Notes under the pieces: model-generated
Told to the model about the DNA's origin: nothing
Seen by the model: the letters and a program-made list of their open reading frames with translations, nothing else
Databases searched by the model: none
Made by a program: the position numbers and the translations under genes
From: an uncultured Anaerolineae bacterium
GTDB lineage: Bacteria; Chloroflexota; Anaerolineae; Fen-1058
DNA length: 53,851 nt
Direction of reading: 5' to 3'
Assembly (NCBI GenBank): GCA_964353405.1
Contig: CAYGWJ010000073.1
Coordinates: 1 to 53,851 of the forward strand
Shown here: positions 7,096-53,851 of the stretch, one piece after another
Layout: each line of letters opens with the position of its first letter
How positions within the stretch are numbered: position 1 is the stretch's first letter

Positions 7096-7734
7096 TTACG
7101 GAATCACGAGCCTCTGACCCACAAAGATAAAGTTGATATTGACCAGATAGTTGGCATTGGCGATGGCCATGACCGTCTTGCCATGCCGGCGGGCAATCGA
7201 ATACAGCGTGTCGCCCGGCTGGACAACATAGACATTGCCTCCCCCTCCGGGTAGAGTGCCACCCGCCTGGATGATCAAGGGCTGGCCCACGTGGAGCGCA
7301 TAGGGCGGGCGAAGGCCATTGGCCTCAATAATAGAATGGGGGCTCACGTTGAACTTGCGCGCGATATTATAGACCCAGTCGCCGGCTTGGACCGTGTAGG
7401 TAACCGGCACTCCCAACGCGACCGGGGCTGCCACCGACTCGGCCGTCGGCGCGGTTACTGGCACCGGCGCACTGGTTGCCACTGGCACGGGCGCGGGGGC
7501 ACTCGTTGCGGCGGGTGCACCCCCTGCTGCGGGTGTGGGCTGGGGTGCGCCCGGTGCTGCCGAGGTCGTGCCCACGGCGGCAGCGGTGGCAATCACCTGG
7601 GTCGGCATGCCAACCACGGTGGGCTGCCCCAGCGGCTTGGGCAGAGGCCCGGTGGACATGGGTCGGTTGCAGCCGGAAGCCAAAATGACCACGGCTGCCA
7701 CAGCCAGGAATACTACGATGCGTCGGTTCATCAA
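7096..7734 (-). CDS. Lipoprotein with two LysM peptidoglycan-binding domains
   Basis: Signal peptide plus lipobox (VVILASGC), an Ala/Pro-rich linker, and two LysM repeats (YTVQAGDWVYNIARKFNV..., YVVQPGDTLYSIARRHGK...). Confidence 0.85.
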   Translation of the reverse strand: MMNRRIVVFLAVAAVVILASGCNRPMSTGPLPKPLGQPTVVGMPTQVIATAAAVGTTSAAPGAPQPTPAAGGAPAATSAPAPVPVATSAPVPVTAPTAESVAAPVALGVPVTYTVQAGDWVYNIARKFNVSPHSIIEANGLRPPYALHVGQPLIIQAGGTLPGGGGNVYVVQPGDTLYSIARRHGKTVMAIANANYLVNINFIFVGQRLVIP

Positions 7735-7855
7735 CTGCCTCCTTGTTTAGCCAGAACACTATGAGGGGCAAAGCACCTAGAGAATATCACACTTCATTCC
7801 CACAGTCAAATGCAAGTGGGCAGCACGGGTGCTCCCAATTACACAGAAAAAACTG

Positions 7856-7883
7856 TTGACACCGCACGTATCGGTGCTACAAT
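7856..7883 (+). promoter_or_regulatory. Near-consensus sigma-70-type promoter facing the histidine-kinase gene
   Basis: TTGACA (7856-7861), 16-nt spacer, TACAAT (7878-7883). It lies about 190 nt upstream of ATG 8076. Confidence 0.4.
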
Positions 7884-8075
7884 GTATATGCTCATATGAT
7901 TCCTGCCCCACCAGCCTCGTTCGACAGGGGAACGTTCAATGCGCATCGTTTTCGCCGGCCATGCAAAGAATCATTCGACAATGAGTAATCGCCTGACCCC
8001 CTTGCGCGCATGTGCGCGGGCGGCGGTCGATGTTTTGCTTAAAGGGCCGATTTTTGCTTTCCAGAGGCAGCGGAT

Positions 8076-9791
8076 ATGAGCTGGCCCTACGCATACACCC
8101 CCACCATCTGGCCGTCTGTCCTTACGGTCCTGCTGTTGGTCGCGCTGTCCGTCTACGCCTGGCGACGGCGCAGCGTGCCCGGCGTGCTGCTTTTTGCCAT
8201 CGCCGGCTTGCTTGACGCGCTGTGGATGGCCGGATACACCCTGGTCATTGCCGCAACGGACGCTGCCGCCAAGATCTTTTGGCTCAAGTTCGGGAGTGTC
8301 TGGCAGGCGTTCGGCGCCACGGCGGTCACCTGCTTTCTGCTGGAATATGCCTGGCCCGGGCGCTGGCTCACCCGCCGCAACCTGGCCCTGCTGTCTATTC
8401 CTCCGCTGCTGATCATGGGACTGATACTGACCGACGATCTCCATCACCTGATGTGGCGCGGCTTTGTGGTTGATGGACCAGGGGTCACCGAGCTGCTCGG
8501 CCCGGCCGGCCGGGCCGCGGTCGCCTATGGTGTTGGGTTGGTCCTGGTGAATCTTGTCGTCTTTGTCTGGCTGTTTCTGCGCTCGCCGCAGCACCGCTGG
8601 CCGGTGGTACTCATGTTGACCGGCCAGATTGCGGTGCGGGTGGCATTCGTGGCGCATGTAGGCCAAGTTATTGAATCGGACCTGCCCCTCAACGTGCTCG
8701 GGGTGGCGTTTTTGTTCGTGATGTATGCCACCGCCTTGTTCGGCTTCCGCATCTTTGACCCGATCGCCATGGCCCGCCAGAGGGTCATCGAGCAACTGCA
8801 TTCCGGCATGCTGGTGCTGGACCCCCAGGGACGGGTGATCAGCCTGAACCCGGGCGCAGGACGGATTTTGGGCCAACGTCCCGGCGACCTCAAGGGCCGG
8901 AGGATGAGCGACCTGCTCCCGCCTTATCCGGACGCGCCTCTCGACGAGACCGAACAGACCGAAATCGAGCTTTGCCTCCCGGAAGCACACTCCCGGAAGG
9001 ACGACGGTGTGGGCGCCGGGCCGGCGGTCCGGCATTACGCCTTGGCGATCTCATCCCTGAAAGATTGGCGTGGGCTGGAAGTAGGCCGCCTGCTTCTGTT
9101 GCGCGATGTAACGGCCCAGAAGCGTGCCCAGGCGCAGATCCTGGAACAGCAGCGAGCGCTGGCGATGCTCTCGGAGCGGGAACGTCTGGCCCGCGAGTTG
9201 CACGACGATCTGGGCCAGGTGCTGGGCTATGTCAAGATGCAGGCCCAGGCGGCGCGCGACCGGCTGGCTCAAGGCCAGGCGGCCGCCGCCGACCTCGATC
9301 TGGCGCAACTGGTGACGGTGGCGCAAGAGGCGCATACCGACGTGCGCGAGTACATCCTCGGCGCACGGTCGGGGACTGGCGCGGAAGCCGGGCTCGTGCC
9401 GGCGCTGCGCCGTTATCTCGCGCAATTCGGCGAGGCGTACAAGATTCAGGCCGAGCTGATCGTATCGCCCGAATGGACGGGCAGCGTCTTGGAGCCAACC
9501 GTCAGGGCACAGGTGCTGCGCATCGTCCAGGAGGCGCTCACCAACGCGCGCAAACATGCCCGCGCCCGGTGTGTTCAGGTGAGCCTCGGTCTGGAGGAGG
9601 GCCTCGCCCGGATCGTCGTCCACGACGACGGCGTGGGGTTTGATCCAACGCTGCTGGCGACGGCGGACGGACTGAAATATGGTCTGCGCTTTATGCGAGA
9701 TCGAGCACAAGAGGTGGGCGGCAGCGTCGAGATTGATTCCGCGCCGGGCCAGGGGACGCGGGTTGTGGTGCAGGTGCCGGTGAGTAGATGA
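8076..9791 (+). CDS. Sensor histidine kinase, NarL/HisKA_3 type (multi-TM N-terminal domain, PAS, HisKA_3, HATPase_c)
   Basis: Six to seven N-terminal TM helices, a PAS-like segment (GMLVLDPQGRVISLNPGAGRILG), the H-box ELHDDLGQVLGYV, N-box QEALTNARKHA, and G-boxes DDGVGF/GLRFMRDRA...GGS. Confidence 0.9.
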   Translation: MSWPYAYTPTIWPSVLTVLLLVALSVYAWRRRSVPGVLLFAIAGLLDALWMAGYTLVIAATDAAAKIFWLKFGSVWQAFGATAVTCFLLEYAWPGRWLTRRNLALLSIPPLLIMGLILTDDLHHLMWRGFVVDGPGVTELLGPAGRAAVAYGVGLVLVNLVVFVWLFLRSPQHRWPVVLMLTGQIAVRVAFVAHVGQVIESDLPLNVLGVAFLFVMYATALFGFRIFDPIAMARQRVIEQLHSGMLVLDPQGRVISLNPGAGRILGQRPGDLKGRRMSDLLPPYPDAPLDETEQTEIELCLPEAHSRKDDGVGAGPAVRHYALAISSLKDWRGLEVGRLLLLRDVTAQKRAQAQILEQQRALAMLSERERLARELHDDLGQVLGYVKMQAQAARDRLAQGQAAAADLDLAQLVTVAQEAHTDVREYILGARSGTGAEAGLVPALRRYLAQFGEAYKIQAELIVSPEWTGSVLEPTVRAQVLRIVQEALTNARKHARARCVQVSLGLEEGLARIVVHDDGVGFDPTLLATADGLKYGLRFMRDRAQEVGGSVEIDSAPGQGTRVVVQVPVSR

Positions 9792-45582: not shown

Positions 45583-45610
45583 TTGACATCATTTCAGAGA
45601 CAAGTATACT
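45583..45610 (+). promoter_or_regulatory. Near-consensus promoter of the three-gene island operon
   Basis: TTGACA (45583-45588), 16 nt, TATACT (45605-45610). About 130 nt upstream of ATG 45741. Confidence 0.45.
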
Positions 45611-45740
45611 ATGGATACAGTTCTTGTAGAGAGCTGACCTCGTAGATTCAGAAAGAACTTTGCAATGATGCAGTTTTTTCTCCAAACCCAGTTTCCTCTT
45701 GGAGCACCAGGTGGAAGCCCCTGCTTTCAAGGAATGCATA

Positions 45741-46898
45741 ATGGGCAAATCCTCAACTGAACCACAGAAATTGCCGATTGACTTTCTTGTCGTTACGCCG
45801 CTTGAGGAAGAGCGGGACGCCTTGCTTGACAAGCTGCCAGGATGGCAAAAAATAGCTCCATCTGAGCAGGATGTTCAAGTCTATTTCCAGTCGGCTCTAT
45901 TGACCACTTTTCCAAATGGCTCTACCAGCGTTTATCAAATTGTCGTGATGCCGCTTGTGGGAATGGGCCGAGTGCAAGCCGCAATGGCAACCAAAGATGC
46001 TATCCGGCAGTGGCACCCTCGCCATGTAATCTTGGTGGGTATTGCGGGTGGGGTGGCCGCCAAGGGTGTGGAACTGGGCGATGTTCTTGTGGCAGACAAA
46101 ATCGTAGATTACGAATTGCAGAAGCAGACCGCCCAGGGTTTGGATATACGGTGGGAAGTCTACAATGCAAGCCCAAGACTGCTCGGGGCAGCCAGAAATT
46201 TGATCGGTGAAAGTTGGTCAGATCTGAGCCGAGTCAAGCGCCCGCAGCGCGGCCAGCCCAAGCGCCATATTGGCCCAATTGCCTCAGGAGACAAAGTCGT
46301 TGACTTCGCCGAGGCCCTGAATATATACCGCGAGACTTGGTCCAAGCTTATTGGGACAGAAATGGAAGCGGGCGGCGTGGCGGCATCAGCATTTCAGTCG
46401 GTTGAGCATGCAGAGTTCTTTATGATTCGGGGTGTTTCGGACCTAGCGGATGGAGACAAGAACAATCCTCAGACTGAAAAGTGGCGCCCTTATGCCTGTG
46501 ATATCGCGGCGGCGTACACCGTCGCACTACTCAAAAGTGGACCGGTTCCGCCAATCAGTGAAGACGTATCTGTCGCTGCGCCTCGACAAGAGACTGTCCA
46601 CTCGGATATTGAAGAATCCTTCAGCAAGCCAAGCCTTGACACACAGGTATTACGAACTCTCTATGCCTATTATCAGATGCATAAAGGGGAACGGCGAATG
46701 AATCTCAATGAATTGGTCACGGCTTGCAGAGCTGATCGGCAAGATATACTACAGTGTCTTTTGGGACTAGAAGAGAAAAGGTGGCTAGAGTATGATGTGA
46801 CAGTTGCGGCAGAAGCCGGGGTGGTGTGGCTTACCGCACTTGGAATCAAAGTTGCTAAGGATATCTATGGAAACAAGCCTGGAAAGCAAAATTCTTGA
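45741..46898 (+). CDS. PNP_UDP_1 (MTA/SAH-nucleosidase-fold) domain protein with C-terminal winged-helix domain
   Basis: Start MGKSSTEPQKLPIDFLVV (AAGGAA upstream). Fold motifs: VVTPLEEERDAL, HVILVGIAGGVAAKGVELGDVLVADKIVDYE, IGPIASGDKVV, GTEMEAGGVAASA, FFMIRGVSDLADGD. The C-terminal ~85 aa are wHTH-like (LRTLYAYYQ...MNLNELVTAC...LLGLEEKRWLEYD...VWLTALGIKVAKD). Confidence 0.85.
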   Translation: MGKSSTEPQKLPIDFLVVTPLEEERDALLDKLPGWQKIAPSEQDVQVYFQSALLTTFPNGSTSVYQIVVMPLVGMGRVQAAMATKDAIRQWHPRHVILVGIAGGVAAKGVELGDVLVADKIVDYELQKQTAQGLDIRWEVYNASPRLLGAARNLIGESWSDLSRVKRPQRGQPKRHIGPIASGDKVVDFAEALNIYRETWSKLIGTEMEAGGVAASAFQSVEHAEFFMIRGVSDLADGDKNNPQTEKWRPYACDIAAAYTVALLKSGPVPPISEDVSVAAPRQETVHSDIEESFSKPSLDTQVLRTLYAYYQMHKGERRMNLNELVTACRADRQDILQCLLGLEEKRWLEYDVTVAAEAGVVWLTALGIKVAKDIYGNKPGKQNS

Positions 46899-48333
46899 CG
46901 AACTTTACACTTGCTTCAATCGCCAGCCCGGTCACCCAGTTACCTTGAGTGAATTGATCGAGGCGATTGGCACGAGTGACATAGGAAAAGTTTGGCAGGA
47001 ACTCAAACGCTTGCAAGAGAAGGGGTGGGTCAAATATCAAATCCTGGAAGACGGAACAGCCGGTACATTTGAAGTGACGTCAGATGGTTGCACAATTGCT
47101 CGAGATAGGCAAAAAACAGTTGCCTATCCTCAGCGTGATAGAGTAAACACTGCTTGCTCCTGCCCAACGACCATAGGCGATCTAATTCAGAAAAAACCAG
47201 ATTGCGCCTCCCTCATTCAGCGCGACGATATTGTGCACGAGATTCAGAAGTACTTTACTCAGAGACCTCCGCCTAAACTGAATTACGTTGTTTTGTATGG
47301 TCAGCCAATGGTAGGAAAGACCTTAATCCTTCGTCGTCTGTGCGAAGTTTTGGGTGGCGAATATGTTACGCTCATGGTGACTGGACAGGGCATCAGTGCA
47401 AGCAATCAGGATGACTATCTGTTCGATCTTGCGTTTCAATTGAAGATCCAGTTCGATCAATGGACTAAACGTCGCGGGTTGTCTCTCAGCCTGGACGCCC
47501 CTGAGCGGGAAGATTTTAGAAAAGGAAGGGGGAGAAATGCGTTTTTTGTGTACTGGAATAATCTTCGACACACGGCTGACAATATACAGCCTGTGGTCAT
47601 GTTCGATGAAATCGAGCACCTATTAGATGATCCACGCCACTTGGATGAGCAGATAATTGCTTTCCTGGACACTTTTGTGAGCGACCCTGATAATGGATAT
47701 TTTGTTTTGGCCGGGTCTGAACGCATATCTCATTCAAGTAATAAGCGGTTTAGCGATTTAATCGGCGATGGATATTCTGTCCGTGTTCCATATTTTGACA
47801 AAGAAGATGTTGAGTCATTCTTTACGGCGCTCCAAGATTACTTTGTCTTGGAAGATGATGCTTTAAAGTGTGTTGTAGCTCTCTGCGATGGGCAGCCTCG
47901 AGTGCTGCAGAACATGTTCGAAGTGATTGCGTCTCTTGCATCTAAATTGCCAGGCAAACGGGAGGTCGGGAACAGCGACGTCAAACTTATCGAGAAAGGC
48001 ATCCTTGAGCGAACCGACAACTTTATATGGGCGCTCGTCCAGCGATTACATCGCGAAGAAAGAGGAGTAGTAACACTGTTCAGTCAAAAGCCATGTGATT
48101 TGAACGACTTGGGGTGCCGCTTAAGACAACTGTTTGAACAGGCAGATCAGCATTTGCAGTCAAAGTTGAACTACAAGAGCCTGGAGGACGGAACTGATTA
48201 TTTGAAAACACGGGAATGGATTGACTGGATAAACCGAGATGAGCGGTTTTTCAATTTCAGGTTAGGGATTGTGCGCTTGTGGCTTAGCCACAATATTCTC
48301 AGTAGTGAGTGGATTGAGGAAACAAGCCAATGA
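46867..48333 (+). CDS. wHTH + P-loop NTPase (AAA/STAND-like ATPase)
   Basis: Start METSLESKILDELY (AAGGA upstream), 32 nt inside the upstream gene. N-terminal wHTH (VTLSELIEAIG...LKRLQEKGWVKYQ...FEVTSDGCTIARD). Walker A YGQPMVGKT, Walker B PVVMFDEIEHLLD. Helical C-terminal half. Confidence 0.85.
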   Translation: METSLESKILDELYTCFNRQPGHPVTLSELIEAIGTSDIGKVWQELKRLQEKGWVKYQILEDGTAGTFEVTSDGCTIARDRQKTVAYPQRDRVNTACSCPTTIGDLIQKKPDCASLIQRDDIVHEIQKYFTQRPPPKLNYVVLYGQPMVGKTLILRRLCEVLGGEYVTLMVTGQGISASNQDDYLFDLAFQLKIQFDQWTKRRGLSLSLDAPEREDFRKGRGRNAFFVYWNNLRHTADNIQPVVMFDEIEHLLDDPRHLDEQIIAFLDTFVSDPDNGYFVLAGSERISHSSNKRFSDLIGDGYSVRVPYFDKEDVESFFTALQDYFVLEDDALKCVVALCDGQPRVLQNMFEVIASLASKLPGKREVGNSDVKLIEKGILERTDNFIWALVQRLHREERGVVTLFSQKPCDLNDLGCRLRQLFEQADQHLQSKLNYKSLEDGTDYLKTREWIDWINRDERFFNFRLGIVRLWLSHNILSSEWIEETSQ

Positions 48334-51239
48334 GCACGCAACCACATGTCAACCCTTTCCGGGTGGGGACAGAAATTCGGGATCCAGCAGATTTTGTCGG
48401 ACGCACCGAAATCCTGCAAGCTATCTCTGCTGCGATGCGAAATCTCCAAAATGTATCTTTGCATGGTGAGCGACGAACTGGAAAAACGTCATTGCTGCTT
48501 TATCTGGCCCATCCTGCTTCTGCTTCGGTAATCGGACTGCCCTCAACTCATATCCCCGTGTATTTCAACTTTCAAGGCTTGGCCGCCAAAGCCAGCGCGG
48601 CTAGTATCTGGCAGGCTATTGCAGATGCCATTTCGATCCAGATCAAGCAGAGACACCCTGATGGGCAGGCTGAAGCAGAACGATTCCTGGCTACCATAGC
48701 CGCAGAGACCTCTGCCATGCCCGCAACTAGTTTTGGGCGAGCTCTTGCGCACCTAGGTAGCTCTGATCACAAGATTCACCTTCTGTTTGATGAATTTGAG
48801 CAAACAGCAGAAAACCCCGACCTGAGAGATATCTTTTACGACGAGCTTCGCAGCTTGCCCCAACGGGCAGGAAATACCTCCTATGTTATCGCCACCCGCA
48901 CAGGGCTGGCAACGCTTCAGCCAAAGTATAACAAGGTCAGTTCCCCCTTCTTCAATATTTTCACCACTATGATCCTGCATCCTTTCGAAGAAGATCAAGT
49001 TTACCACCTAATTTTTAAGTATCTTAATCGTTCAGGTCTTGGTTTTGTCGCAGAAAGACTGTGTACTCAGTCTCATTTCTTACATGAAGTGACAGGATAC
49101 CACCCCTTCTTTCTGCAGACTTTGTGTTACCACCTCTGTGAAAGGATAGATGAACCTGGCTGGCCATTGGGCAAGCCCCAACAGGAAGCACTGGCGGCTT
49201 TCGAAAACGACGCGGACCCTCATTTTAGGTATTATTGGGAACAATCATCTCCAGCAGAACGAGAGCTACTGGCAAAACTTGCTACTGGGCAGTCTGTTGA
49301 TTGGCATGAGACAAATGCAGAGCCTGTGCGCAAGGAACTGGAAGCGCGTTGCCTAGTTGTGCAGACTAATGAGCTTGAACCTGGATGGAGGTTGTTTTCT
49401 TCTGTTTTTGGCAGGTGGGTCGGGGCTCAGTTATTAAATGAAGCCAAGAAACAACAGCAGTTGGAAGAATGGTACAGGCAGGGCATTGCACATCTGGAGC
49501 GAGAACAGTGGTCTGAAGCTATTCAGTGCTTCGAGCACATTGTGAATGAAAATCCCGCTTATCACGACGCTGTCGAACGACTGGAGTATGCACGGCCACA
49601 GAAAGAGTTAGAGATCCTGTACACCCAAGGCCTCAGCTATATTCAACGAAGCAATTGGCAACAAGCAATCACCAAACTTGAGGCTGTGGTTCAACGGGAT
49701 AGCGGCTTTAAGGACGTAGCCGCCTGCTTGCAAGTGGCGCAGAGGCAGCAAGAAGCAGAGATTCTCTACAAACAAGGCAAAGATCGGTTTAATCGTGGTG
49801 AATGGTCCCAGGCGATTGAGCAACTTGAGCGTGTCCTGATACTGGTCCCGGGTTACAGAGACGTGGATGCGATGCTGACCCAAGCACGCCAGCAAGAAAG
49901 ATTACAGCAATTGTACCGCCAGGGTGAGGAGTATCTTAAAAAAGAGGAATGGCAGCAAGCCATTGACGCTTTTGATCAAGTTGTTGCCCTTGACAAAGAC
50001 TATATGGACACCCTGGCGAAACTGGATGAAGCGCACCGGCAGGCAGAATTGTTCGATCTCTATGACAGGGCTCAGTATTATGAGGAGAAGAAAAGATGGG
50101 CCGAAGCCGGAGACCTATACATCCAAATCTTGGCAAAGGACCGAGATTACCGAGATGTTGCCCGCCGACTGGCTGAGGTGCAACTCCAGAAGGAACTTGC
50201 AGCTCTCTACCTACAGGCAGAAGATGACTTGGCGCGAGGCGAATGGAACAAAGCAGCGGGAAAGTTTTATCAAGTCCTTAAGTTGAGTCCAGGGTACCGA
50301 GACGCTCAAGCCAAGCTGGTAGAAGCAGAGAAGAAGGCACGACTTCAGACCATTTACGATATGGCAATGCAGGATGCGAAACGGGAGAACTGGAAAGCTG
50401 CGGCCAGGAAGTTGAAAAGCATTCTGAGAGAAGAGCCGGCTTTTCCGGACGTCGAAGCAAAGCTGGAGTGGGTTGAACGGAATGAGAGACTGGCGGAGCG
50501 CTATCTACTGGCGATTAAGCGTTTGAAGACAAAGCAGTGGCAAGCGGCTATAGCGTTGTTAGAGCAGGTCCTGGCAGAAGATCCTAGTTACAAGGACGCA
50601 AGCGAGCAACTGGATGAGGCAAAGAGACATGCAAGCCGGGTGGAGCAGCCGGAGCCAAAATCTGAAAGTCAGGTTGGTCAAGTGCTTGGTCTTATCCTGG
50701 GGTTTATTGCAGTGGCCCTTACAATGTTTGCGGTTTGGAAGATCAATCCTGGACAACTGGTCCTGGTGATTGTTGGCGCTGGGGTGTCTATAATCGGTAT
50801 CCTCTTGACTTTTCTGTCTTCCAAGAAATTCGGCAAGGTGCCTGGATCGGTGGTATTCGTATTAGGCTTGGCGATATCTCTAATCGGTATGATACCAATC
50901 CCATCTTCCTCTAAGCTCGAAATCACCAGCGTCAATCTAGTTGAAGGAAAAGTGACTGGTAGAATGCTTGTCAATGAGCAACTACCCCAAGATGTAGCCG
51001 TTGAAGTTTACATGCGAACGGGAGGTGACAGAGGCTGGCTCTTGATCAACCCGAATCCTGGCTCTCACGATATACACCTGGACGATACTTGGACTTGGAC
51101 TGTTTATTTTGGTCAGGAGGTACATTTGGAGCCGGGGGAAAACTTGTCCTTTGCTGCACTTGTGCCGGTTGGGAAGATAAGTGAGCTTCCCGGGTCCCTA
51201 GCAGCTTGTCGGAGAGGCGTTTCGGAGTCTAGGCTTTAG
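48330..51239 (+). CDS. STAND-like P-loop NTPase + 8 TPR-like repeats + 3 TM helices + extracytoplasmic beta-rich tail
   Basis: ATGA overlap with the upstream gene. NPFRVGTEIRDPADFVGRTEIL...LHGERRTGKTSLLLYL (Walker A), KIHLLFDEFEQ (Walker B). Eight ~46-aa repeats (L..LY.QG......W..AI..LE.VL...P.Y.D....L..A). TM helices VLGLILGFIAVALTMFAVW, LVLVIVGAGVSIIGILLTFL, VVFVLGLAISLIGMIPI. Confidence 0.85.
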   Translation: MSTQPHVNPFRVGTEIRDPADFVGRTEILQAISAAMRNLQNVSLHGERRTGKTSLLLYLAHPASASVIGLPSTHIPVYFNFQGLAAKASAASIWQAIADAISIQIKQRHPDGQAEAERFLATIAAETSAMPATSFGRALAHLGSSDHKIHLLFDEFEQTAENPDLRDIFYDELRSLPQRAGNTSYVIATRTGLATLQPKYNKVSSPFFNIFTTMILHPFEEDQVYHLIFKYLNRSGLGFVAERLCTQSHFLHEVTGYHPFFLQTLCYHLCERIDEPGWPLGKPQQEALAAFENDADPHFRYYWEQSSPAERELLAKLATGQSVDWHETNAEPVRKELEARCLVVQTNELEPGWRLFSSVFGRWVGAQLLNEAKKQQQLEEWYRQGIAHLEREQWSEAIQCFEHIVNENPAYHDAVERLEYARPQKELEILYTQGLSYIQRSNWQQAITKLEAVVQRDSGFKDVAACLQVAQRQQEAEILYKQGKDRFNRGEWSQAIEQLERVLILVPGYRDVDAMLTQARQQERLQQLYRQGEEYLKKEEWQQAIDAFDQVVALDKDYMDTLAKLDEAHRQAELFDLYDRAQYYEEKKRWAEAGDLYIQILAKDRDYRDVARRLAEVQLQKELAALYLQAEDDLARGEWNKAAGKFYQVLKLSPGYRDAQAKLVEAEKKARLQTIYDMAMQDAKRENWKAAARKLKSILREEPAFPDVEAKLEWVERNERLAERYLLAIKRLKTKQWQAAIALLEQVLAEDPSYKDASEQLDEAKRHASRVEQPEPKSESQVGQVLGLILGFIAVALTMFAVWKINPGQLVLVIVGAGVSIIGILLTFLSSKKFGKVPGSVVFVLGLAISLIGMIPIPSSSKLEITSVNLVEGKVTGRMLVNEQLPQDVAVEVYMRTGGDRGWLLINPNPGSHDIHLDDTWTWTVYFGQEVHLEPGENLSFAALVPVGKISELPGSLAACRRGVSESRL

Positions 51240-51327
51240 CCGGTTTTGGCCGAAAATCGCCGCGTGCTCACCGGCTGAAGCCTCGATTCCGGCCCGTCAG
51301 GGTTCTCTCCGACAAGCTCCTAGGGGA
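51195..51327. repeat. ~133-bp nested inverted-repeat element spanning the stop of the STAND gene
   Basis: Outer arms 51195-51216 TCCCTAGCAGCTTGTCGGAGAG and 51305-51327 CTCTCCGACAAGCTCCTAGGGGA (one mismatch, one extra G). Inner arms 51231-51243 AGGCTTTAGCCGG and 51271-51283 CCGGCTGAAGCCT (12/13 plus a G-U pair). Confidence 0.85.
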
Positions 51328-51349
51328 TAGAGTTAGCAGAGATTACGGC

Positions 51350-52018
51350 GTGCTCAAAAAGGACCTGAAACCCCTGGTGTTCAAGGAGGATGTTGGTTGG
51401 ATATCCGGGGTGTATCGTGAACCGGCAAATACACCAACACCCACCCATACATCAACGGCCAGATCTACACAAACTATTGCACCCACGCCATCACCGACTA
51501 GTACACCAGCGCCATCCAGCTCACCAACATCTTCGCCAATACCGACACATTATCCTTCTCCGTCAGTTAGTCCCACACGCACGCCAACACCTATCGCTGT
51601 CCCGACACTAGCCTTATTGCCGGCTCCCAAGTTGATCAAGCCGGGGAATGATAGTGGCTGGACAATGGGGTTTGTCCAATTTGAGTGGACGTGGGATGGC
51701 AATCTCTCGAATGACAAATGGTATCTGATCCGTGTTGGCCCTGATCCGAATCTGGAGATGAACACAGCAACCGCAAAAACCTGGGAATCTGGTACCTCAT
51801 GGCAGACGAATGATGTAGGCGCACGTGCAGGTTGGTATTACGCTTACGTGGTCGTTATAGGCACTTGGCCCGGCAGTGCAGAAAGCTGCAAGCCTTACAT
51901 CTATGAAGCAGGCAAGAATGTCTGTTTCCGAGAAATAAGCGCAAGAAGTGAGAAACAGGAATTTTACTTTGTACCACCTGGTTCGGGTGCTCCTTCATGC
52001 CCGCCCGGTCATTGTTGA
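51350..52018 (+). CDS. Pro/Thr/Ser-linker protein with Cys-containing C-terminal domain; possibly the detached C-terminus of the upstream gene
   Basis: The GTG start has no convincing RBS and no signal peptide, yet the sequence looks extracytoplasmic (a long PTPTHTSTA...PSPTSTPAPSSSPTSSP linker, then WTMGFVQFEWTWDG...CKPYIYEAGKNVC...CPPGHC). The frame is open upstream to 51233. Confidence 0.55.
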   Translation: MLKKDLKPLVFKEDVGWISGVYREPANTPTPTHTSTARSTQTIAPTPSPTSTPAPSSSPTSSPIPTHYPSPSVSPTRTPTPIAVPTLALLPAPKLIKPGNDSGWTMGFVQFEWTWDGNLSNDKWYLIRVGPDPNLEMNTATAKTWESGTSWQTNDVGARAGWYYAYVVVIGTWPGSAESCKPYIYEAGKNVCFREISARSEKQEFYFVPPGSGAPSCPPGHC

Positions 52019-52089
52019 TGACGGAATATTTCGAGACAGTGATGCAATCAGTGAAATGATCTGATGGCTCAGACCACAGGGAGAGAGGA

Positions 52090-53493
52090 TTGAGATTGAA
52101 GATAGGAAAATGGTTGCCTAACATCTTGGAACCGATTGTAGCCCGTAAATGGCTACTCGTTTCAATATTTCTCGGCATCCTTCTCTTTGTCTCTGTTTAT
52201 GCTGTACTAGTATCGGAGAGAAGGCCCATTTTACATCTGGCCCAAAGTGACGCGCCTGATCCTGTTGAAGTTGGCAAAACGTTGGTATACCATATCACCT
52301 ATAGCAACACAGGGCAAGCTGCGGCGCATGGAGTGTTTATCACCGACACTTTCGATATGAACGTTACTCCCATAGCATTCTCGCAGCCTCCTCACACTAT
52401 AGATAGTCGCCAGGGGTCATGGAACATTGGTCAGGTGAAAGCAAACAGCAGTGGCGATGTTGTCATTACCGTAACGGTGAATAGCTCTCTTACAACTAGC
52501 CTCAAGTTGTCTAATCAGGTCAAGATAAGCAGTGATGAACTTCAGGCCATTGAGGACAGAGAACTCACACGAGTTATTGGAGTTCCGGTATTGAGCATAA
52601 GCCAAGTTGACCCGCCCGATCGAGTAGGACCAGGCGGAATACTGATCTACAGACTCACCTATAGCAATACTGGAACCGCCGCAGCTACGCAAGCGAGTGT
52701 CTATGACGAGTTTGATCCCAACGTCATGTTTGACGCAGGCAATTGTGCGCCTGTTCCAAGTATGTTAGGTCCGCGCTTGGCTCTTTGGAATATTGGGAAG
52801 CTGGAAGTGGGAGAGCAGGGAATGATCGAGTGTTCAGTTCAAGTAACAGACACGGTGTTGGGCTTCGCCGTGCTAAACAATGCCGCTTGGATTCAGAGCC
52901 ATGAAACGGATAAAGTAGAGGCACATACCAAGACCGTATTGAATAGCCCCGGAGTGCTCTGTAACGGCGACTTTGAAATGGGTGACTTGAGTTGTTGGAT
53001 CAAAATTGCCGCGCCCAACTTTCCTGTAGATGTCGTGAGACCCCTTACTGATCCAAATTATAACTGCTTTGATACCTATGCTGTGCGTATTGGAAATTCT
53101 GGATGGGTGCCCAATGGAAAGTTGGCAACGGGGCGCTATGGCATTGCACAGACTGTCCAGGTATCTGATATACCTTATCCAAAGCTGGAATTTGACTATT
53201 GCATGTATTCCTACGACGTAATGGAAGGTCCCTTTTCTCGCGACATTTACGATATTTTCGCAATTGCTGTAAACGACCTCTACACTTATACTTGGCGTAC
53301 TGGGAACCCTGGTCCGAATTTGGGCAATCCTTGGATGTCAGAACCTTCCCGAAAAGCTATTCGTCAATCCATCGATCTCTCAGACTACCGAGGAAAGACT
53401 GTAACCCTTTTCTTCCTAGTCTGGAACCAGATCTATCCTGAATTGAACACCTGGGTATATATAGACAATATTGACGGCGACTTTGCGCGTTGA
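52090..53493 (+). CDS. Membrane-anchored surface protein: two DUF11-like repeats + C-terminal jelly-roll/CBM-like domain
   Basis: TM anchor WLLVSIFLGILLFVSVYAVLV. DUF11-type units (DPVEVGKTLVYHITYSNTGQAAAHGVFITDTF..., DRVGPGGILIYRLTYSNTGTAAATQASVYDEF...). C-terminal CNGDFEMGDLSCW...VYIDNI. TTG start (52090 or 52096) after GGGAGAGAGGA. Confidence 0.75.
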   Translation: MRLKIGKWLPNILEPIVARKWLLVSIFLGILLFVSVYAVLVSERRPILHLAQSDAPDPVEVGKTLVYHITYSNTGQAAAHGVFITDTFDMNVTPIAFSQPPHTIDSRQGSWNIGQVKANSSGDVVITVTVNSSLTTSLKLSNQVKISSDELQAIEDRELTRVIGVPVLSISQVDPPDRVGPGGILIYRLTYSNTGTAAATQASVYDEFDPNVMFDAGNCAPVPSMLGPRLALWNIGKLEVGEQGMIECSVQVTDTVLGFAVLNNAAWIQSHETDKVEAHTKTVLNSPGVLCNGDFEMGDLSCWIKIAAPNFPVDVVRPLTDPNYNCFDTYAVRIGNSGWVPNGKLATGRYGIAQTVQVSDIPYPKLEFDYCMYSYDVMEGPFSRDIYDIFAIAVNDLYTYTWRTGNPGPNLGNPWMSEPSRKAIRQSIDLSDYRGKTVTLFFLVWNQIYPELNTWVYIDNIDGDFAR

Positions 53494-53503
53494 GCGGCGT
53501 TAG

Positions 53504-53851
53504 CGTTTATCAGTTTTCCTCTTTGGTGATCTGTGTCGCAAGATCAATATCTTGCGGCCCGATCGTCTACGCACACTGCCATTCAATGCCCAGGGCAAGA
53601 AAAGCCGCGCTCTGCACAGGCGCGAGCGCACACGAGTCAGCGAGTATGTCTCTGGCAACCTGACCACCGAAGAAGCGATTGAAGAGGCGATTCAGAAACT
53701 GCGTGACTGGCCGATCGAGCTTGTGCGACAACGCGACGAACTACGTCCCAAGGTCAGCGAGGCTCGCGAAGCGCTTGAGCACGACTTGTACGAGCAACTA
53801 GTATTACAGCGCAACATTAGCCTCCAGCTGTCTCAGCTTGGTCTTGCGGTG
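53504..53851 (+). CDS. Open reading frame running off the window; no canonical ATG, function unknown
   Basis: The frame is open from 53504 to the window end: ...RLRTLPFNAQGKKSRALHRRERTRVSEYVSGNLTTEEAIEEAIQKLRDWPIELVRQRDELRPKVSEAREALEHDLYEQLVLQRN... It looks helical/coiled-coil. GC is back at backbone level. Confidence 0.25.

Follow-up and report, generated by a model that had tools for sequence, protein, structure and literature searches.

The stretch analysed here, called the window, comprises 53,851 nucleotides (nt) of contig CAYGWJ010000073.1 from an uncultured Anaerolineae bacterium, and it carries an operon of three genes in which the end of the first protein and the beginning of the second bear the same small winged-helix (or winged helix-turn-helix, wHTH) domain. 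All features of the operon given below lie on the + strand. Gene 1 (45741..46898; 385 amino acids, aa; protein P0004), read from its open reading frame (ORF) and translation, begins with ATG, stops with TGA at 46896-46898 and encodes an effector of the PNP/MTA-nucleosidase fold followed by a C-terminal winged helix. Its catalytic domain, PNP_UDP_1 (Pfam PF01048, E 1e-18), covers residues ~67-246 (45939..46478), which correspond to residues 81-260 of the TTG-start translation in which the Pfam match was recorded. The protein matches the PADLOC models 'Effector PN-superfamily' and PDC-M60C, and MTA/SAH nucleosidases are its nearest solved relatives. Between the catalytic domain and the winged helix the translation has a linker of ~50 aa (46479..46631), the final ~35 of which are rich in Pro, Ser and Glu; no family matched this linker in the Pfam scan, and it would act as a flexible tether. 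The effector-borne winged helix, or B copy, occupies residues 298-374 (46632..46862; ~77 aa), as delimited by BLASTP against the gene 2 copy and by the structural model.

Gene 2 (46867..48333; 488 aa; protein P0005) encodes a winged helix, a P-loop ATPase with matches to AAA_22, ATPase_2 and AAA_16, and a second winged helix at the C-terminus. Its start overlaps the tail of gene 1 by 32 nt (46867..46898), so that the two domains are encoded back-to-back across the junction, as an earlier reading of this DNA (the original prediction) had proposed. The ribosome-binding site of gene 2, AAGGA (46857..46861), lies within gene 1, 5 nt before the gene 2 ATG, and the start agrees with the N-termini of the gene 2 homologues. 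The ATPase-borne winged helix, or A copy, spans residues 4-80 (46876..47106; BLASTP, model and Foldseek) and is found at the same position in most homologues. It is followed by the ATPase module (residues ~100-488, 47164..48330, from the alignment and the Pfam coordinates), which opens with a conserved CP..L..LI...........RD motif and whose Walker A (GQPMVGKT) and Walker B (FDEIE) motifs are invariant across 19 homologues. The C-terminal winged helix of gene 2 (residues ~415-470, 47900-48330), with the motif L..REWIEW......LFRFKLGI, shows weak secondary hidden Markov model similarity to its N-terminal counterpart in several homologues, and the two winged helices of this protein may be distantly related. 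Gene 3 (48330..51239; 969 aa) encodes an nSTAND2 NTPase with TPR repeats and a transmembrane/beta C-terminus: it scores 36.4 bits against PF20702 (cut-off 24), matches TPR families and has intact Walker A (GERRTGKT) and Walker B (FDEFE) motifs. Genes 2 and 3 overlap by 4 nt, and the same order and overlap recur in two other loci (L010 and L011), making the nSTAND2 gene the conserved downstream partner of the gene 2-type ATPase in all three.

The original prediction held, from an alignment made by eye, that the C-terminus of gene 1 and the N-terminus of gene 2 are one and the same domain, with roughly 30% identity over ~75 residues. In BLASTP the two segments share 24/78 identities (31%), with 38 bits and an E-value of 4e-10 as a single comparison; their Smith-Waterman alignment scores 89, whereas shuffled sequences score 23.3 +/- 4.5 and 0/5000 of them get that high. 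In a six-frame search of the 5.58-Mb assembly, the sole significant match of each copy is the other copy (E 1e-4 and 2e-4). A profile built from four effector-borne copies recovers gene 2 with an E-value of 2.5e-5 against 1.84 billion proteins, and the profile-profile alignment of the two sub-families by hhalign is statistically significant, with a probability of 99.3% and an E-value of 1.3e-20 over 84 columns. Pairwise alignment, shuffles, profile comparison and predicted folds all agree, and confirm that the two segments are homologous MarR-like winged helices. They lie where the original prediction placed them, save that its start at 46631 is one base out of frame, the domain beginning at the codon at 46632. 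We rejected the idea that the pair arose by a recent local duplication, because the two copies fall in different, old sub-groups of the tree. A homologue search using the last 90 residues of gene 1 returned the query itself only.

Both AlphaFold models have the winged-helix order H1-beta-H2-H3-beta-beta. The gene 2 copy (predicted local distance difference test, pLDDT, 86) superposes in Foldseek on MarR, MepR and ZitR with TM 0.74-0.79 and a root-mean-square deviation of 1.6-2.3 A, and thus has the MarR-like topology at the level of the fold. The model of the gene 1 copy is weaker (pLDDT 72, from 4 sequences), has the same order of elements and yields weak generic winged-helix matches, several of which (5ffx, 3eco, 5fb2 and 3ov8) are shared with gene 2. 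The ESM Atlas returned only generic MarR/winged-helix look-alikes, below 0.9, and a sequence search of the PDB found no relative of gene 2. With three to four helices and a beta-hairpin, the models match winged helices and not Death-fold entries. On average the domains carry a net negative charge (mean about -2, maximum +3), and no basic columns are conserved in H3, the recognition helix, or in the wing of the family. The wing is where the two sub-types of the domain differ most, with a conserved AE.GLVWLT in the effector type versus DG..G...I in the ATPase type.

With the effector-borne profile, HMMER found 94 clusters at E<=1e-3 (63 at E<=1e-10) in the 1.84-billion-protein library. All 94 show the motif of the domain, and ordinary or generic MarR regulators account for 0/94. 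The domain sits at the extreme C-terminus in 52 clusters, at the N-terminus in 37 and internally in 5, and 16 of the 37 N-terminal copies precede a gene 2-type ATPase. Three groups of partners emerge from the Pfam scans and alignments: (i) effectors, namely PNP, single and double TIR, caspase, CHAT, Mrr_cat, HNH, trypsin, FGE-sulfatase, DUF4062 and calcineurin-like phosphoesterase (Metallophos); (ii) core NTPases, namely the gene 2 ATPase clade, iSTAND (P0041 and P0094, with the domain N-terminal) and nSTAND2 (P0032, with the domain C-terminal); and (iii) adaptors already named, EAD1, EAD2, EAD7, EAD8, EAD9 and bDLD1, carried in the same polypeptide (EAD, effector-associated domain). The fusion partners of the domain include no fewer than ten further kinds of immune effector, and it is therefore most likely an adaptor and not a DNA binder. 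One metagenome protein of 303 aa, P0033, consists of EAD2, the winged helix and EAD7 alone, without an enzymatic domain, and looks like a pure adaptor hub.

None of the Pfam EAD models (EAD1-EAD11 and bDLD1) matches the winged helix of gene 1 or gene 2 (E<=0.1) or the isolated segment (E<=1e-3), and in the relatives the EAD matches fall outside the winged helix. NCBIfam and PADLOC hold no entry for the winged-helix family, and full-text literature searches returned no description of a winged-helix EAD. The domain is small (~80 aa) and has no catalytic family match.

The gene 2 homologues are 32-63% identical, come mostly from metagenomes and in most cases have the winged helix at the same place, followed by a variable linker and then the conserved start motif of the ATPase. 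The winged helix is also kept where something else is fused in front of it: TIR (P0008, P0015), trypsin (P0012), calcineurin-like phosphoesterase (P0111), EAD1 (P0017), EAD7 (P0019, P0024) or a 270-aa region without assignment (L009). As judged from these alignments, the ATPase-borne copy is therefore a constant part of the ATPase clade and not merely an adaptor slot. In one homologue, P0020, EAD8 stands in place of the winged helix, and P0010, P0022 and P0026 have other N-terminal regions there. P0016 carries both sub-types, an ATPase-type copy at the N-terminus and an effector-type copy at the C-terminus (wHTH-ATPase-wHTH). A single fused PNP-wHTH-ATPase polypeptide, which the original prediction had suggested looking for as Rosetta-stone evidence, was not found; TIR-, trypsin- and phosphoesterase-wHTH-ATPase fusions were, as well as P0016, and these supply evidence of the Rosetta-stone kind in part.

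An effector-winged-helix gene lies directly upstream of a winged-helix-ATPase gene in the three loci that we read as DNA, with PNP as the effector in the window and in L007 and CHAT in L010. Two more co-located pairs, P0039/P0007 and P0109/P0117, are inferred because the partners lie on contigs of the same size (2546 nt for the former; 8483 and 10202 nt for the latter). Searches for related loci with two of the alignments yielded few in genome contigs, and the metagenome scan yielded four. The C-terminal copies of L007, L010 and P0016 are 43-54% identical to the gene 1 copy and to one another and only 31-43% identical to the ATPase-borne copies beside them; more broadly, identity between the gene 1 copy and C-terminal domains from further PNP, CHAT and ATPase proteins is 43-71%.

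On this evidence, we consider it probable that both segments are members of a single, specific and hitherto unnamed family of winged helices, acting as an effector-associated adaptor domain. In the mechanism that we envisage, gene 3 (nSTAND2-TPR) would sense the invader and assemble with the gene 2 ATPase, a role suggested by the conserved gene pair and by the published nSTAND2 model. The N-terminal winged helices of the assembled ATPase would then form a docking platform, on which the C-terminal winged helix of gene 1, carried on its ~50-aa linker, would dock by winged-helix-to-winged-helix contact. The resulting clustering would switch on the nucleosidase, which would deplete adenine nucleotides, probably by cleaving ATP or dATP as other immune PNP effectors do, and the infection would be aborted. 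We infer the binding of the copies to each other, the activation by binding, the trigger and the substrate. The linkers that flank the domain in both proteins fit an adaptor, as do the acidic charge and a wing without conserved basic positions.

How closely does the domain resemble the EADs? These were defined as small, non-catalytic domains with one copy on a core component and others on variable effectors, frequently those of a neighbouring gene; they are placed at the termini of the core components, adjacent copies tend to be mutual closest relatives, and the homotypic interaction of the copies is a prediction, not a demonstrated criterion (Kaur et al. 2020, PMC7159879, section 30). As in the EADs (EAD1-EAD11 and bDLD1-3; PMC7159879, PMC8195603), the winged helix is a small, terminal, non-catalytic domain present on a core NTPase and on the effector of an adjacent gene, the adjacency resting on the three loci read and the two inferred pairs. 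It shares their range of effectors (PNP, TIR, caspase/CHAT, trypsin, REase, FGS), co-occurs with EAD1/2/7/8/9 and bDLD1, is replaced by EAD8 in one homologue and, on iSTAND proteins, takes the N-terminal position that corresponds to the core-component terminus of the EADs. It differs from them in three respects: (i) the described EADs are all-alpha or mixed alpha+beta, whereas this one is a winged helix; (ii) the core-borne copy persists under direct fusion of an effector; and (iii) the paired copies are usually of two diverged sub-types. The adaptor logic put forward in the original prediction is thus partly supported: it agrees with the fusion range, the core NTPases, the co-occurrence with EADs and the EAD8 swap, and fits less well with the divergence of the copies and the constancy of the one on the ATPase.

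Several observations weigh against the adaptor reading. In five of the six pairs, neighbouring copies share only 31-43% identity, and the tree, which comprises 84 columns and is poorly resolved, does not place them as sisters; the closest-relatives tendency of the EADs is therefore absent from these five, and the sole pair that follows it is P0109/P0117 (72% identical, sisters, SH-aLRT 100). With diverged sub-types in five of six pairs, the pairing would be homotypic at the level of the family only. Adjacency was read directly in three loci only, and in one genome (G401), which lacks a gene 2-type ATPase, the domain is found twice, on short ORFs. Winged helices are best known as binders of nucleic acids. 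Finally, the ATPase retains its winged helix even with TIR, trypsin, phosphoesterase, EAD1 or EAD7 fused in front. This retention in direct fusions means that the ATPase copy must do more than recruit a separate effector; it may mediate self-association in the oligomer, a contact that the effector copy could exploit. With these points taken into account, the domain pair appears best filed as a winged-helix-fold member of the EAD class, usually comprising two sub-types.

The main rival is that both winged helices are sensors of a shared ligand: they would bind the same trigger, be it nucleic acid from the invader, a modified nucleotide or a small-molecule signal, and effector and ATPase would then be co-regulated without touching, in the manner of the CARF and SAVED sensor domains found on many effectors. 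We regard this as unlikely. Winged helices do commonly bind DNA, RNA or small ligands, those of the MarR type are the best structural matches here, and the weak matches of the gene 1 model include the Z-DNA/RNA-binding Z-alpha domains; fusion to many classes of effector is a signature of sensor domains too, and a sensor would be consistent with an ATPase that keeps its copy even with an effector fused to it. The original prediction had named a common nucleic-acid ligand as its alternative, and this is weakened, though kept as a rival, by the net acidic charge of the domains and by a recognition helix and wing without conserved basic positions. The operon moreover already has a sensor in the TPRs of gene 3, and there would be little reason for the core NTPase and the effector of a single operon each to carry a dedicated sensor, nor does sensing sit well with the adaptor-only EAD2/EAD7 protein or with the swap for EAD8.

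It is also conceivable, although improbable, that the winged helix serves the ATPase in oligomerisation or regulation and that the effector copy was left behind when an ancestral effector-wHTH-ATPase gene was split, persisting for the folding or autoinhibition of the effector without docking on the ATPase copy. Fused effector-wHTH-ATPase forms with a single winged helix do exist, the split in the window falls exactly between the two copies, with the genes overlapping, and the ATPase-borne copy is constant in its clade. The effector sub-type, however, makes up a large group of its own in the tree and stays conserved, at 43-71% identity, between different classes of effector and different loci, which argues for an old, selected and mobile module and not for a local relic. 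The occurrence of the domain at N-termini, on iSTAND and nSTAND2 proteins and together with other EADs also speaks against this rival.

A role as ordinary DNA-binding regulators that autoregulate the operon or tether the proteins to DNA is highly improbable, for although the fold matches MarR-family DNA-binding domains and the window proteins have marginal matches to HTH_27, PadR and LexA_DNA_bind (HTH_27 at E<=1e-3 in 2/44 members of the family), the absence of generic regulators from the family matches, the missing MarR dimerisation helices, the acidic charge and the lack of a conserved basic residue in the wing all speak against it, and it leaves terminal fusion to more than ten enzyme classes unexplained. 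MarR proteins have a conserved Asp-x-Arg motif in the wing. The likeness to MarR and MepR is one of fold and order of secondary structure, the L..L.EKGW motif and the beta-hairpin after it resembling the recognition-helix and wing region. In contrast to these proteins, the family domain has only ~80 aa, without flanking dimerisation helices, is acidic and not basic, and is never a stand-alone regulator among the family matches; it would accordingly not belong to the MarR family in the functional sense, which is marked by dimerisation helices and a basic recognition helix and wing.

Returning to the winged helix as an adaptor, the original prediction compared it with the Death-like domains. Like the Death-fold adaptors (CARD, DD, DED and PYD; bDLDs), it is a small domain present on both a signalling NTPase and an effector, for which like-with-like contact has been proposed; unlike them, it is a winged helix and not a six-helix bundle. 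The core of the operon resembles the nSTAND2 two-gene operon shown in figure 6C and the source data of Kaur et al. 2021 (PMC8195603), with two adjacent, translationally coupled NTPase genes, the second matching Pfam nSTAND2 and TPRs and the first having an N-terminal domain before the NTPase. In that operon, as presented there, one NTPase has eroded NTP-binding motifs and bears a HEPN or GT4 effector; the source tables give the first protein as '??+STAND+wHTH', leaving the N-terminus without annotation, and in the parts of the table covered here no effector appears as a gene apart. The window thus has the adjacent pair of STAND-type NTPases without the eroded motifs and the fused effector: neither NTPase has lost its Walker A or B motif, the C-terminal part of gene 3 consists of TPRs and a membrane/beta region in place of HEPN or GT4, the effector has a gene of its own upstream and is linked through the two winged helices, and the gene 2 ATPase falls below the Pfam nSTAND2 threshold. 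As for the effector, immune PNP domains are ATP nucleosidases (Rousset et al. 2023, bioRxiv 10.1101/2023.01.24.525353). Gene 1 resembles Cap17 of CBASS, DtcC of Detocs and PNP-Avs in having a PNP_UDP_1-fold domain in a defence context; those are coupled through SAVED, a receiver or direct STAND fusion, whereas gene 1 would be coupled through its C-terminal winged helix.

The surroundings of these genes vary. In the window, the GC content is 0.46-0.52 at 45600-53800, covering the three-gene operon and the genes that follow, versus 0.60-0.63 in the cobalamin genes upstream; among ~400 genomes of the same phylum there is no close gene 2 homologue (best E 1e-12, ATPase core only). The low GC content and the lack of a close homologue in the phylum are consistent with horizontal acquisition. 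A tblastn search of 72,556 plasmids with gene 2 found nothing. Elsewhere in the genome to which the window belongs there is at least one EAD1-bearing protein (G000:C273:628-837, L029; 25.7 bits, above the Pfam cut-off), so the organism carries other EAD-type conflict systems.

Other loci show further arrangements. The downstream partner in L010 (3446-7219) is a protein of 1257 aa with nSTAND2, CHAT, TIR and AAA_35, far more elaborate than the nSTAND2-TPR-transmembrane protein of the window. In L009 (192-9812), a vWA_CoxE-like gene precedes the winged-helix-ATPase gene, an EAD9-caspase and a PglZ-like protein follow it, and no nSTAND2 partner was seen; the N-terminal 270 aa were considered as a partner of the neighbouring EAD9-caspase, and BLASTP gave no similarity. 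In L012 (1-885), a DDE transposase gene lies directly upstream of the winged-helix-ATPase gene, where other loci have the effector-winged-helix gene, and an insertion may have displaced the effector. L007, a whole contig of 1915 nt, is labelled as part of a Nitrosopumilaceae archaeon metagenome-assembled genome and yet bears the PNP-wHTH/wHTH-ATPase pair, which otherwise comes from bacterial or unassigned metagenome contigs; this could reflect mis-binning of a short contig or transfer into archaea. A Desulfobacterales genome has, at L025:6400-7800, short DNA repeats (the same peptide repeated in several ORFs), which could be a CRISPR or REP-like array, beside a truncated PNP-wHTH remnant (7716-8240); the genome also contains another short wHTH ORF (L028:7457-7894) and lacks a gene 2-type ATPase.

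EADs explain the exchange of effectors in the NTPase-based immune systems of bacteria and have been proposed as forerunners of the animal Death-fold adaptors, and a family of a different fold would extend the repertoire of adaptors. Our proposal, which we put forward tentatively as being close to evenly balanced, is that this is the first EAD of winged-helix fold, in which the A copy is a socket on the NTPase and the B copy a plug on the effector, the two forming a docking code that swaps at least ten classes of effector onto several NTPase cores. If so, the cores served by this code would be the gene 2 ATPase clade, iSTAND and nSTAND2, the published nSTAND2 two-gene system would become a three-gene system with an effector recruited in trans, and prokaryotic immunity would have turned a DNA-binding fold into an adaptor between proteins. 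The copies usually fall into two sub-types, which points to a directional contact of plug and socket instead of like-with-like polymerisation; this would be a new variation on the EAD theme. With the family, the unannotated end domains of many metagenome PNP, TIR, caspase and nuclease proteins would gain a name and a role that can be tested, and the N-terminal region of the gene 2 ATPase clade would gain an annotation. The winged-helix domain would also be a good marker for new defence operons and for predicting which effector matches which NTPase.

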